Origin: Escherichia coli | Lineage (GTDB): Bacteria > Pseudomonadota > Gammaproteobacteria > Enterobacterales > Enterobacteriaceae | Assembly: GCF_017348835.2 (NCBI RefSeq) | Contig: NZ_CP071375.1 | Length of the DNA: 64,000 nucleotides | Reading direction: 5' to 3' (one strand) | Part shown: piece after piece, positions 53,843 to 57,467 of the stretch | How positions within the stretch are numbered: position 1 is the first letter of the stretch | Layout: every line of letters begins with the position of its first letter | The notes under the pieces: generated by a model | Databases searched by the model: none | What the model was told of the DNA's origin: nothing | Seen by the model: only the letters and a program-made list of their open reading frames with translations | Program-made: the position numbers and the translations under genes

Positions 53843-54459
53843 GCCAGTTTTTTTATATTCATCCTGATAACCCACAGCAACGTCTGATCAACCAGGCGGT
53901 GGAGATCGTGCGTAAAGGCGGGGTGATTGTTTATCCAACCGATTCCGGCTATGCGCTTGGCTGTAAAATTGAAGATAAAAACGCGATGGAGCGTATTTGT
54001 CGTATTCGCCAACTGCCGGACGGTCACAACTTTACCCTGATGTGTCGCGATCTTTCTGAACTCTCGACCTATTCATTTGTGGATAACGTTGCGTTTCGTT
54101 TGATGAAAAACAACACGCCGGGTAACTACACTTTTATCCTGAAAGGGACGAAAGAAGTGCCACGCCGTCTGTTGCAGGAAAAACGCAAAACCATCGGTAT
54201 GCGTGTGCCTTCTAACCCGATTGCGCAGGCGTTGCTTGAAGCATTGGGCGAACCGATGCTTTCCACTTCGCTAATGCTGCCAGGCAGCGAATTTACCGAA
54301 TCCGATCCGGAAGAAATTAAAGACCGTCTGGAAAAACAGGTGGATTTGATCATTCACGGCGGCTATCTCGGTCAGAAACCGACAACGGTTATCGATCTTA
54401 CCGATGATACGCCAGTCGTGGTGCGTGAAGGCGTAGGTGATGTGAAGCCTTTCTTATAA
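53839..54459 (+). CDS. yciO: YrdC/Sua5-family protein YciO, 206 aa
   Basis: Start set at the ATG giving MSQFFYIHPDNPQQ; 4-nt overlap with yciV. Confidence 0.85.
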   Translation: MSQFFYIHPDNPQQRLINQAVEIVRKGGVIVYPTDSGYALGCKIEDKNAMERICRIRQLPDGHNFTLMCRDLSELSTYSFVDNVAFRLMKNNTPGNYTFILKGTKEVPRRLLQEKRKTIGMRVPSNPIAQALLEALGEPMLSTSLMLPGSEFTESDPEEIKDRLEKQVDLIIHGGYLGQKPTTVIDLTDDTPVVVREGVGDVKPFL

Positions 54460-54486
54460 TAAATTGCGTTCCACGGATGGAAGACT

Positions 54487-56382
54487 ATGGCAGGGAAGTT
54501 TCGCTGCATTTTGCTGTTGATAGCAGGGCTGTTTGTATCATCTCTAAGTTATGCAGAAAACACGGAGATCCCTTCTTATGAAGAAGGGATCTCGCTCTTT
54601 GATGTTGAAGCCACTCTGCAACCGGATGGGGTGCTCGACATCAAAGAAAATATTCATTTTCAGGCGCGAAATCAGCAGATTAAGCACGGATTTTATCGTG
54701 ATTTACCACGACTCTGGATGCAGCCTGATGGGGACGCTGCACTGCTGAACTATCATATTGTTGGCGTCACCCGTGATGGTATTCCTGAACCCTGGCATCA
54801 TGACTGGCATATCGGGTTAATGAGTATTGTCGTGGGCGATAAACAACGTTTCTTGCCTCAAGGCGACTATCATTATCAAATTCATTATCAGGTTAAAAAT
54901 GCTTTCCTGCGTGAGGGAGATTCAGATCTGTTAATCTGGAACGTGACTGGTAACCACTGGCCGTTTGAAATCTATAAGACCCGATTTTCACTCAAGTTCC
55001 CTGATATCGCGGGTAATCCATTTAGCGAAATCGATCTCTTTACTGGAGAAGAGGGCGACACATATCGAAATGGCCGCATCCTTGAGGACGGAAGAATTGA
55101 ATCCCGCGATCCGTTTTATCGTGAAGATTTCACGGTACTCTACCGCTGGCCTCACGCTTTACTTAGCAATGCCCCGGCTCCACAAACGACGAATATTTTC
55201 AGCCATCTTCTTTTACCCTCCACGTCATCGTTGTTAATTTGGTTTCCGTGTCTGTTCCTGGTTTGTGGATGGTTATATCTCTGGAAGCGCAGGCCGCAAT
55301 TTACGCCAGTAGATGTAATTGAAACCGATGTCATTCCGCCAGATTACACGCCCGGCATGTTACGTCTCGATGCGAAGCTGGTTTACGACGATAAAGGTTT
55401 TTGCGCCGATATCGTAAATCTGATTGTGAAAGGAAAAATTCATCTGGAAGACCTGTATGACAAGAACCAGCAAACCCTGATTCGTGTTAATGAAGGCGCG
55501 ACCAGAAATAATGAGGTATTACTGCCCGCAGAGCAGTTATTACTGGAAGCGTTATTTCGTAAAGGCGATAAGGTCGTTCTTACGGGGAGACGCAACAGAG
55601 TCTTACGTAGGGCATTTTTACGGATGCAGAAATTTTATCTGCCGCGTAAAAAGTCTTCGTTTTACCGGCCTGATACGTTTTTGCAATGGGGTGGACTGGC
55701 AATATTGGCGGTCATTCTCTACGGTAACCTGAGTCCTGTAGGCTGGGCAGGAATGAGTCTGGTGGGCGATATGTTTATTATGATCTGCTGGCTTCTTCCT
55801 TTTTTATTTTGTTCCCTTGAGCTTTTGTTTGCCCGCGATGATGACAAGCCTTGCGTTAATCGTGTAATCATCACTTTGTTTTTACCGCTGATTTGTTCAG
55901 GCGTGGCCTTTTATTCTCTCTATATCAATGTCGGAGATGTATTCTTTTACTGGTATATGCCAGCGGGTTATTTTAGCGCTGTTTTCCTGACCGGTTATCT
56001 CACTGGTATGGGGTATATTTTTCTGCCAAAGTTTACCCAAACTGGGCAGCAACGTTATGCCCACGGTGAAGCTATCGTTAACTATCTTGCGCGTAAAGAG
56101 GCGGCAACACACAGTGGGCGGCGGCGGAAAGGGGAAACACGGAAACTGGATTACGCGTTGCTAGGTTGGGCTGTCTCAGCAAACCTTGGAAGAGAATGGG
56201 TAGCACGTATCACCCCATCACTCACAGCGGCTGTTAGCTCCCCGGAAATTGCCCGTAGTGGCGTTTTGTTCTCATTACAGATGCACCTGAGTCTGGGGGC
56301 CAATACCAGTTTGTTGGGGCGAAGTTATTCCGGTGGTGGTGCTGGCGGCGGCGCGGGTGGCGGAGGCGGTGGTGGCTGGTAA
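54487..56382 (+). CDS. yciQ: DUF2207 membrane protein YciQ, 631 aa, with a Gly-rich C-terminal tail
   Basis: Signal-like N-terminus, several hydrophobic segments, C-terminal GGGAGGGAGGGGGGGW. Confidence 0.85.
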   Translation: MAGKFRCILLLIAGLFVSSLSYAENTEIPSYEEGISLFDVEATLQPDGVLDIKENIHFQARNQQIKHGFYRDLPRLWMQPDGDAALLNYHIVGVTRDGIPEPWHHDWHIGLMSIVVGDKQRFLPQGDYHYQIHYQVKNAFLREGDSDLLIWNVTGNHWPFEIYKTRFSLKFPDIAGNPFSEIDLFTGEEGDTYRNGRILEDGRIESRDPFYREDFTVLYRWPHALLSNAPAPQTTNIFSHLLLPSTSSLLIWFPCLFLVCGWLYLWKRRPQFTPVDVIETDVIPPDYTPGMLRLDAKLVYDDKGFCADIVNLIVKGKIHLEDLYDKNQQTLIRVNEGATRNNEVLLPAEQLLLEALFRKGDKVVLTGRRNRVLRRAFLRMQKFYLPRKKSSFYRPDTFLQWGGLAILAVILYGNLSPVGWAGMSLVGDMFIMICWLLPFLFCSLELLFARDDDKPCVNRVIITLFLPLICSGVAFYSLYINVGDVFFYWYMPAGYFSAVFLTGYLTGMGYIFLPKFTQTGQQRYAHGEAIVNYLARKEAATHSGRRRKGETRKLDYALLGWAVSANLGREWVARITPSLTAAVSSPEIARSGVLFSLQMHLSLGANTSLLGRSYSGGGAGGGAGGGGGGGW

Positions 56383-56594
56383 TTAAGCTGATGTTAATCG
56401 AAACAAGCTTTAACCATAAAGATAGTGTAGTATGTTGCGCCTCAAAGCCAGGCCAGTTAAAACGTCGAGTCGTTTAATTAAGGCCTGAAGAGTTCAAACA
56501 GACTTTACTATCAGTGAGTCAGATGTAAGTTCTGACTCACTGTTGCACAAAAGCATATCAGACGCCTGGGAAGGCGACACCAAAAGGAAGCTCT

Positions 56595-57467
56595 ATGAGC
56601 GAAAAGCTACAGAAAGTGCTGGCGCGTGCCGGCCACGGTTCTCGCCGTGAAATCGAATCTATTATTGAAGCCGGTCGTGTGAGTGTTGATGGCAAAATTG
56701 CTAAACTCGGCGATCGCGTTGAAGTTACCCCTGGATTGAAAATCCGTATCGATGGTCACCTGATTTCGGTACGTGAGTCCGCTGAACAAATTTGTCGCGT
56801 TCTGGCCTATTACAAACCGGAAGGTGAGTTGTGTACCCGTAACGATCCGGAAGGACGTCCAACGGTGTTTGACCGTCTGCCAAAACTGCGCGGCGCACGC
56901 TGGATTGCCGTGGGTCGCTTGGACGTTAATACCTGTGGTCTGCTGCTGTTCACCACCGATGGTGAACTGGCAAACCGTTTAATGCATCCAAGCCGTGAAG
57001 TTGAACGTGAATATGCCGTGCGTGTATTTGGTCAGGTTGACGACGCGAAACTGCGTGATTTGAGTCGTGGCGTGCAGTTGGAAGATGGTCCGGCAGCTTT
57101 TAAAACCATCAAGTTCAGCGGCGGCGAAGGGATCAACCAGTGGTACAACGTGACTCTGACCGAAGGCCGTAACCGTGAAGTTCGTCGACTGTGGGAAGCG
57201 GTTGGTGTGCAGGTGAGCCGCCTGATCCGTGTTCGTTACGGTGATATCCCACTGCCAAAAGGTCTGCCACGCGGTGGCTGGACGGAGCTGGACCTCGCCC
57301 AGACTAACTATCTGCGCGAACTGGTGGAGCTACCGCCAGAAACCAGCTCTAAAGTCGCTGTAGAAAAAGACCGTCGTCGCATGAAGGCGAATCAGATTCG
57401 TCGTGCGGTGAAACGTCACAGTCAGGTGAGCGGCGGTCGTCGTTCTGGCGGGCGTAATAGCGGTTAA
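56595..57467 (+). CDS. rluB: 23S rRNA pseudouridine(2605) synthase RluB
   Basis: S4 domain N-terminus; synteny. Confidence 0.88.

Follow-up and report, generated by a model that had tools for sequence, protein, structure and literature searches.

The glycine-rich tract that closes yciQ is, in all likelihood, the C-terminal signature of the DUF2207 family, in which insertions and deletions are rare and slow, and not a contingency locus. The tract has no importance as a mutational switch, since on the evidence it is not one. Its interest lies instead in correcting the view of the tail as disposable low complexity: judged from aligned sequences, this is the best-conserved segment of a large family, and it is probably a selected C-terminal motif with a candidate function, namely that of a flexible leash anchored by a Trp.

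The yciQ gene and its terminal tract

The yciQ coding sequence occupies 54487..56382 on the plus strand of the window, the 64,000-nucleotide stretch of Escherichia coli DNA analysed here, and encodes a protein of 631 aa that we described using the list of open reading frames, Pfam, RefSeq annotation, hydropathy and an AF2 model. It matches the gene of strain PE164 at 100%, and RefSeq labels the identical gene ‘yciQ: DUF2207 domain-containing protein’. YciQ comprises a signal peptide, a DUF2207 N-domain, approximately five transmembrane (TM) helices and a C-terminal region. Its identity as a DUF2207 membrane protein, proposed in an earlier note on this DNA, is confirmed by two Pfam models that score above their cut-offs: PF09972 on residues 35-176 (83 bits, cut-off 24.4), corresponding to the DUF2207 N-domain, and PF20990 on residues 284-535 (36.8 bits, cut-off 33), corresponding to the DUF2207_C membrane domain. 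An NCBIfam search with YciQ returned no family, so that no curated model of a C-terminal signal covers it, and a profile search of the PDB found no solved DUF2207 structure, its matches being weak ones to Gly linkers (SSB, an EBNA1 fusion and similar). A Foldseek search of the PDB matched the N-domain only, which resembles ribophorin I and the M1 aminopeptidase N-domain (TM ~0.2), and is silent on the tail.

The translated ORF ends in ...GRSYSGGGAGGGAGGGGGGGW or, given more fully, ...LLGRSYSGGGAGGGAGGGGGGGW. The region singled out by the earlier note (56326-56382, plus strand) runs from Y614 to W631 and includes the TAA stop. The glycine-rich tail described there is real: Gly fills 13 of the 15 positions before the Trp, compared with 7.5% in the rest of YciQ (binomial P ~2e-13 per position). 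The tract proper (56332-56376) reads GGT GGT GGT GCT GGC GGC GGC GCG GGT GGC GGA GGC GGT GGT GGC, then TGG TAA. It divides into an upstream GGGA unit, G616-A619 (56332..56343, plus strand), which forms the variable spacer in the alignment of 19 E. coli alleles and in the allele tails, and a terminal core, GGG-A-GGGGGGG-W, G620-W631 (56344..56379, plus strand), delimited by family conservation and AF2 pLDDT; the TAA stop (56380..56382, plus strand) comes right after the terminal Trp. Calling the tract GGT/GGC-rich is accurate as to composition, yet the repeat is imperfect, with at most three perfect units. No perfect tandem run exceeds (GGT)3+G or (GGC)3+G, no homopolymer exceeds 3, and Tandem Repeats Finder reports only a weak period-15 array (score 47), which rules out a true microsatellite. 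Further upstream, GGGCGGCGGCGG (codons GRRR; 56116..56127, plus strand) forms a direct repeat with GGCGGCGG of the tract, as seen when the window is aligned with strain LR-28. A promoter and terminator scan of 56300-56650 found none, and Rfam over 54300-56800 gave only a chance match to snoZ242 (19.7 bits, gathering score 90); these scans thus found no RNA or regulatory element overlapping the tract.

Conservation of the tail and absence of the gene from some genomes

A phmmer search against 1.84 billion representatives gave 4,511 representative matches at E <= 1e-3. From the best 150 matches we kept the 124 of at least 550 aa, which are 24-53% identical to YciQ, and counted a tail as present where the last 20 residues held at least 40% Gly and ended in W; the Gly-Trp tail as a family trait is thus empirical, set up here and outside the Pfam models. 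By this measure 109 of the 124 homologs carry the tail, with the consensus ...GGG[SF]SGGG[GSAR]GGGGG[GR]GW, and G620-W631 of YciQ equals the GGGxGGGGGGGW core residue for residue. What had been termed a low-complexity tail is certainly a Gly/Ala run, but with so many homologs sharing it, it is not mere low complexity. In a 77-sequence alignment the last 15 residues hold four of the ten invariant columns (G620, G624, G625 and G627) and eight of the 41 near-invariant ones; conservation reaches 90% or more at G617, G621, G622, G626, G628, G630 and W631. The Gly codons of the homolog tails are a mixture of GGA, GGT, GGC and GGG. Gly/Ser-rich C-termini have been mentioned for DUF2207 proteins (PMC10457818), as have Gly-rich C-terminal extensions for bacterial TPM/Psb32-like proteins (bioRxiv 10.1101/2025.05.08.652833); our literature search returned passing mentions of the Gly-Trp tail and no study dedicated to it. 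The observation of a tail is ordinary and largely known.

YciQ shares with other DUF2207 proteins, such as SMU.243 of S. mutans (PMC10457818), a protein with an acid and peroxide tolerance phenotype, both Pfam domains, the GGGxGGGGGGGW core, and a tail that closes the protein, following the last TM helix and a region of ~130 aa. It departs from its relatives at the spacer positions, where Ser, Phe or Gly is usual and E. coli YciQ has Ala; most E. coli strains therefore have GGGA-GGGA where the relatives have GGGxS-GGGx.

Could the tail nevertheless be a functionless, low-complexity extension that drifts in length as yciQ decays in E. coli? Several observations speak for this: 1,442 of 5,426 E. 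coli genomes (27%) cleanly lack the gene, and it is truncated in O157:H7 (CDS of 1,584 nt), interrupted by IS1 in one strain (H67) and called a pseudogene by PGAP in LR-28, and published papers on strain engineering have widely chosen it as a neutral integration site. We nonetheless consider drift of this kind improbable, as no segment is conserved better than the tail in a family whose members are otherwise so divergent, and the residues of the tail persist while their Gly codons are scrambled among homologs. Within E. coli, the terminal GGGGG[G/S]GW is kept in every in-frame allele, and intact yciQ alleles have a dN/dS of 0.13-0.19. The gene is dispensable in E. coli, being absent from more than a quarter of genomes, and selection there may therefore act only weakly on the finer features of the tail. 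The presence or absence of yciQ, together with its mosaic 3′ end, is worth knowing for those who use the locus as a ‘neutral’ integration site.

Tail-length alleles among E. coli genomes

The earlier note had proposed comparing yciQ 3′ ends across E. coli, with invariance as the outcome that would count against it. Invariance was not seen: complete genomes carry in-frame tail alleles of +2, 0, -1, -2 and -4 codons. In a systematic sample of 60 rows spread over 3,977 records, with classes verified on individual sequences, 46 had the 16-residue tail, seven were -2, five -4 and one +2, and one had a large deletion. The tails of the alleles are GGGAGGGAGGGGGGGW, GGGAGGAGGGGGGGW, GGGSGAGGGGG[G/S]GW, GGGAGGGGGGGW, GGAAGGGGGGGW and GGGSGAGGGAGGGGGGGW, all in frame, and the recurrent alleles all differ by multiples of 3 and retain the terminal Trp and stop. 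The differences are rare in-frame indels of 3-12 nt that fall within the GGGx spacer upstream and have triplet repeats or microhomology at their flanks; in alignment columns they map to the GGGA spacer and to the codons that open the next unit (about 56338-56355). The sole frame-breaking case is a 228-nt deletion in LR-28, between the upstream GGGCGGCGGCGG repeat and the tract, in a strain that also carries a 12-nt duplication. In the alignment of 19 alleles, the length alleles co-segregate with flanking SNP haplotypes, and SNPs at Gly codons of the tract are mostly third-position and synonymous. Spacer indels are inherited with lineages and shuffled by recombination. Because changes in length arose repeatedly, the tract must take up indels more readily than coding DNA does on average.

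Contingency loci have long perfect tracts (typically at least ~6-8 units) and switch at high frequency, usually through shifts of reading frame or promoter spacing. If yciQ were such a locus, frequent and reversible slipped-strand mispairing would phase-vary the length of the tail and thereby modulate the function or antigenicity of YciQ. The existence of several length alleles points that way, as does the -4-codon class, which arose twice, as two different alleles on two haplotype backgrounds. In at least one case, that of an O121 strain, the (GGC)3 run inside the terminal core (56344-56352) has become (GGC)2, a change of -1 codon on flanks that are otherwise K-12-like; this is a textbook slippage contraction, of the same type as the short-tandem-repeat indels of Neisseria, Haemophilus and Campylobacter contingency loci. 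To that extent the slippage suggested in the earlier note probably did take place. A long perfect tract, frequent change of repeat number among close isolates and on/off switching of frame, however, were all lacking. The yciQ repeats are imperfect and reach only three units, and the changes in them are rare and fixed in lineages, travelling with flanking SNPs; the common alleles are in frame, and therefore there is no ON/OFF switching. The sampled O157:H7 rows share a single allele. A 250-nt K-12 query spanning the tract and its flanks matched 1,295 records at >=99% identity, and the K-12 flanks without the tract matched 1,261-1,327 full-length records at >=99%. By this census, which compares identity-band counts for queries that include or omit the tract and draws on the 60-row samples, not on every sequence of the 3,976 yciQ-positive genomes, at least ~97.5% of genomes with K-12-like flanks carry an indel-free tract and at most ~2.5% a variant; the indel-free tracts include those of laboratory derivatives separated by decades. 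Hydropathy, topology prediction and PMC10457818 indicate that the tail is probably on the cytoplasmic side, where neither the immune system nor phages would exert selection on it. A contingency locus is thus very improbable. As judged across genomes, change in tail length is slow, rare and lineage-level, and is not phase variation.

It is scarcely credible that errors of sequencing or assembly in a GC-rich repeat account for the length polymorphism. Some platforms are prone to errors in GC-rich triplet tracts, and single odd records exist (for example H63, with a 1,895-nt match), but the common alleles recur in many independent assemblies and under shared RefSeq protein accessions (four identical O157 rows, H23-H26; WP_001551010.1 in three strains), their differences are all multiples of 3, and they go with SNP haplotypes in the flanks.

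A candidate role for the Gly-Trp tail

Taking the tract as a family signature with slow indels, we suggest that replication slippage or microhomology-mediated deletion produced the spacer alleles from time to time, and that these alleles would be nearly neutral because the spacer would act as a length-tolerant linker. The signature itself would be a flexible Gly/Ala(Ser)-rich leash with an almost invariant GGG-x-GGGGGGG-Trp-COOH end, a side-chain-free tether that may deliver the final Trp and its carboxylate to where they bind. The putative binding site for the tip could belong to YciQ itself, to an adjacent protomer or to a partner.

In the AF2 model, residues 589-616 (56251..56334, plus strand), which precede the tip, form a disordered linker with pLDDT <50, and residues ~621-631 are placed confidently (pLDDT 88-95). 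The confidence of the tip was lost when residues 243-631 were re-predicted with the N-domain removed, a prediction for which the alignment was also shallower. Docking of the tip that depends on the N-domain fits poorly with a predicted periplasmic N-domain and a cytoplasmic tail.

Several known systems bear comparison. E. coli YgcG, of the TPM family, has the C-terminus GGFSGGGGSSGGGGASGRW and follows the same order as YciQ, with an exported domain, one or more TM segments and a Gly-rich tail ending in W. Its globular domain is unrelated, however (TPM rather than the DUF2207 beta-sandwich of YciQ), and its Gly runs are shorter (4-4-4) and broken by S/A, with R as the penultimate residue. Bacterial SSB offers an analogy in how it works, with no homology implied: a length-variable, Gly-rich disordered linker leads to an invariant docking tip. 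The SSB tip is acidic and hydrophobic (DDDIPF), which differs from the Gly7-Trp of YciQ, and the partner of the YciQ tail is only putative; in the PDB profile search, the SSB Gly-rich tail appeared as a weak low-complexity match. A GlyGly-CTERM/rhombosortase sorting signal was considered and rejected. In such signals a Gly-Gly motif precedes a hydrophobic TM helix and a basic cluster, which together close the C-terminus, whereas YciQ ends ...GGGGGGGW*, with neither TM helix nor basic cluster after the Gly run. McdB is reported to have an invariant C-terminal Trp (PMC11321042), analogous to the conserved tip of YciQ.

A tentative extension, which we think may well not hold, is that GGG-x-GGGGGGG-Trp-COOH is a dedicated docking or recognition module common to DUF2207 and TPM/YgcG-type envelope proteins, its pocket lying in cis, on a protomer or on a partner. 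If that were so, the E. coli series of +2, 0, -1, -2 and -4 codons would amount to a natural experiment in linker length, and the confident position that AF2 gives to the final ~10 residues would provide a first hint of the docking site. The recurrence of the tail in TPM-domain proteins provides a handle on the role of DUF2207, TPM and LemA-linked envelope proteins.

The DUF2207 and TPM/YgcG-type families are both often linked to LemA genes. Enterobacterial yciQ sits in the order yciO-yciQ-rluB, without a LemA gene, whereas distant homologs have a LemA gene immediately upstream.

The YciQ tail and its length alleles

YciQ (631 residues) is encoded on the plus strand at window positions 54487–56382, within the gene order rnm-yciO-yciQ-rluB-cobO-yciK, and its C-terminus reads ...LLGRSYSGGGAGGGAGGGGGGGW immediately before the stop codon. 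Pfam models PF09972 (83 bits) and PF20990 (36.8 bits) both match above their gathering scores, and the corresponding gene of strain PE164, 100% identical to a 251-nt query around the tract, carries the RefSeq label 'yciQ: DUF2207 domain-containing protein'. The range 56326–56382 (+), to which the earlier note assigned a low-complexity tail, runs from Y614 through the stop codon; the Gly/Ala tract itself lies at 56332–56376 (+) and consists of three GGT codons, GCT, three GGC codons and GCG, then GGT, GGC, GGA, GGC, GGT, GGT and GGC, followed by TGG TAA. Glycine fills 13 of the 15 positions before the tryptophan, against 7.5% elsewhere in YciQ (P ~2e-13 per position), confirming a Gly/Ala-rich C-terminal tail.

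Of 5,426 complete E. coli genomes searched by megablast with window 56230–56480, 3,976 contain the tract region, and the length of the match varies from record to record. We aligned 16 representatives plus three more reached via rluB matches. The window, K-12 and most strains share the tail GGGAGGGAGGGGGGGW; strain UID2309220003 (locus L007) has two additional codons (GGGSGAGGGAGGGGGGGW), several strains lack two codons (GGGSGAGGGGG[G/S]GW), and four are missing from both strain 98192 (locus L010; GGGAGGGGGGGW) and O157:H7 (GGAAGGGGGGGW). An O121 strain is shorter by a single codon (GGGAGGAGGGGGGGW), through a clean contraction of (GGC)3 to (GGC)2. In a systematic sample of 60 rows (every ~66th of 3,977 records), with length classes checked against fetched sequences, the 16-residue tail was found in 46, -2 codons in seven, -4 codons in five, and +2 codons and a large deletion in one each. 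Given these classes among sampled and fetched genomes, the polymorphism is real: the comparison of yciQ 3′ ends across E. coli genomes proposed in the earlier note shows that tail length is not invariant (+2, 0, -1, -2 and -4 codons).

One larger lesion reaches into the tract. Strain LR-28 (locus L016) has a 228-nt out-of-frame deletion, placed against window 56116–56353, between GGGCGGCGGCGG at 56116–56127 and GGCGGCGG of the Gly tract, together with a tandem duplication of 12 nt (GGCGGGTGGCGG x2). Its tail is out of frame, and PGAP labels the gene a pseudogene.

Phase variation or slow lineage change

The earlier note had proposed that the GGT/GGC-rich tract is a slippage hotspot that could phase-vary the tail. 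Known contingency loci carry long perfect tracts, from which the yciQ tract is far removed, being an imperfect repeat of no more than three perfect units: its perfect tandem repeats extend no further than (GGT)3+G and (GGC)3+G, its longest homopolymer is 3 nt, and TRF detects nothing beyond a weak array of period 15 (score 47). With no homopolymer longer than 3 nt, the tract contains no frameshift substrate. We found no overlap of the tract region with an RNA family or with a site resembling a promoter or a terminator.

The distribution of alleles also argues for slow change. Recurrent alleles all differ by multiples of 3, each retaining the terminal GGGGG[G/S]GW and the stop codon, and in the alignment they are linked to flanking SNPs, with 'SGA' alleles always on the ...GCCTATACC...CGGAGCTATTC... 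background; the indels are thus old enough to be in linkage disequilibrium with their surroundings. The +2 allele could be the ancestor of both major alleles, through one deletion each, of 6 and 12 nt. A 250-nt K-12 query comprising flanks and tract matched 1,295 records at ≥99% identity, a band from which a 3-nt gap removes a record, and the K-12 flanks without the tract matched between 1,261 and 1,327 full-length records at ≥99%, a bound derived from rank positions in a spread listing. Together these counts limit tract variants to at most ~2.5% of K-12-background genomes, a background that takes in many laboratory derivatives decades apart. The O121 -1 allele was the sole tract variant on this background among the sampled rows, and the four O157:H7-type rows in the sample had one allele in common.

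The proposal therefore stands at the population level, where slippage-type variation in length exists. Phase variation is without evidence, and several lines count against it: changes are in-frame and haplotype-linked, variants make up at most ~2.5% of K-12-background genomes, and the repeats are short. The indels resemble infrequent events of slippage or microhomology at runs of triplets, which became fixed in lineages and were moved by recombination.

A family signature and a possible docked tip

Within the DUF2207 family the tail is a known, conserved signature of uncharacterised function. Searching 1.84 billion cluster representatives with YciQ (phmmer) yielded 4,511 matches at E ≤ 1e-3; among the best 150 of these, 124 are at least 550 residues long, and 109 of the 124 end in a Gly-rich stretch and a terminal Trp. 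The tailed homologs share the consensus ...GGG[SF]SGGG[GSAR]GGGGG[GR]GW, yet are only 24–53% identical to YciQ. Across 77 aligned sequences (mean column identity 26%), G620, G624, G625 and G627 supply four of the ten invariant columns, and G617, G621, G622, G626, G628, G630 and W631 are ≥90% conserved, figures biased by the choice of those 77 sequences among tail-bearing matches, a bias from which the 109 of 124 is free. At residues 620–631 (GGG-A-GGGGGGG-W) YciQ agrees with the family core at every position, and the E. coli indels are confined to the extra GGGx spacer upstream. In three homologs the tail is encoded by scrambled GGA, GGT, GGC and GGG codons, and most SNPs in the tract between E. 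coli alleles are third-position and synonymous; conservation thus acts on the protein rather than on the DNA repeat. Some tail-less database homologs resemble tract frameshifts, such as homolog P0040, which ends in an Arg run.

Our literature search returned only passing mentions of the Gly-rich tails, as Gly/Ser-rich C-termini in DUF2207 proteins (PMC10457818) and as Gly-rich extensions at the C-terminus in bacterial TPM/Psb32-like proteins (bioRxiv 10.1101/2025.05.08.652833), and we found no solved structure of the DUF2207 family and no NCBIfam model for it. YgcG of E. coli K-12 (locus L022, 4712–5584) likewise has a Gly-rich, Trp-terminated tail (GGFSGGGGSSGGGGASGRW) but belongs to the unrelated TPM-domain family. 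A further reading, possible but less likely than not, would make Gly7-Trp a specific docking module common to YciQ and TPM proteins.

Hydropathy and the positive-inside rule predict a signal peptide (residues 1–23), a periplasmic beta-sandwich N-domain (24–240; window 54556–55206), TM1 (243–265), a K/R-rich cytoplasmic domain (266–396), four more TM helices and a K/R-rich C-terminal region of ~120 residues. Five TM segments after the signal peptide are also modal among homologs (55 of 104 in a crude Kyte-Doolittle count), and the tail is thus probably cytoplasmic. In Foldseek comparisons the N-domain weakly resembles ribophorin I/OST1 of the OST complex and the N-domain of M1 aminopeptidases/LTA4 hydrolase (E ~1e-6 to 1e-5, TM-scores only ~0.2).

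An AF2 model of YciQ built with 76 homologs (mean pLDDT 83.6) has residues 589–616 disordered (pLDDT <50) and the last ~10 residues at pLDDT 88–95, with 627–630 as a beta-strand (589–631 corresponds to window 56251–56379), which suggests a flexible leash with a docked tip. A model of residues 243–631 alone, from 23 aligned sequences, has a mean pLDDT of 72, and pLDDT falls to ~30 over the last 54 residues; confident placement of the tip thus relies on either the presence of the N-terminal domain or the depth of the alignment. Docking in cis on the periplasmic N-domain would contradict the predicted topology.

As the best reading of the tail we infer, rather than demonstrate, a leash-and-tip mechanism, in which the Gly run, free of side chains, would allow the C-terminal Trp and carboxylate to reach a putative binding site and pack there, and the upstream spacer would tolerate changes in length. 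SSB combines a linker with a tip, an arrangement analogous in principle to that of YciQ. The terminal Trp is similarly analogous to the invariant C-terminal Trp of McdB (PMC11321042).

Presence, divergence and neighbourhood of yciQ

Though rluB is found in 5,422 of 5,426 genomes, yciQ is found in only 3,976, and is an accessory gene in E. coli. The polymorphism is a clean presence/absence one, with yciO and rluB 100 nt apart in 1,442 of the 5,426 complete genomes. These 1,442 genomes have the 2,101-nt segment with yciQ (window 54460–56560) swapped for an unrelated 66-nt sequence with a GGCGCTATACGGCGCC hairpin inside (positions 401–466 of yciQ-less loci L020 and L021); the replacement is bounded precisely by the yciO stop codon and by a point 35 nt upstream of the rluB ATG.

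Damaged copies also occur: the O157:H7 yciQ (strain 7636, locus L006; matches H116–H119) combines a ~300-nt internal deletion, leaving a 1,584-nt CDS, with the -4-codon tail, and strain 13C1065T carries an IS1A insertion. Despite these, dN/dS of 0.13–0.19 points to purifying selection on intact alleles. Allele types differ by a dS of 0.10–0.18 over the gene, unusually high for E. coli, rising to 0.38–0.50 over the last 300 nt (56083–56382) between the K-12 type and other types (loci L001, L017 and L018), with dN/dS of 0.11–0.25 in the same comparison; the high value at the 3′ end suggests a mosaic imported by recombination. The allele of the window is rare, with 2 records only at ≥99% identity over the gene. 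The gene serves as an integration site in many engineering papers.

The coding sequences of distant DUF2207 homologs (P0046, P0010) begin a single base past the stop codon of a LemA-family gene (L025 2445–2999, L026 1975–2529, L027 2427–2999), a spacing that suggests translational coupling. Enterobacterial yciQ has no LemA neighbour, either in the window or in its closest relative (P0001, locus L028), the latter with yciO-yciQ-rluB synteny. Some E. coli carry two extra hypothetical genes (~340 and ~102 residues) between rluB and cobO (L017 4546–5886, L018 4546–5866, L024 3746–5066), which are absent from the window and K-12.
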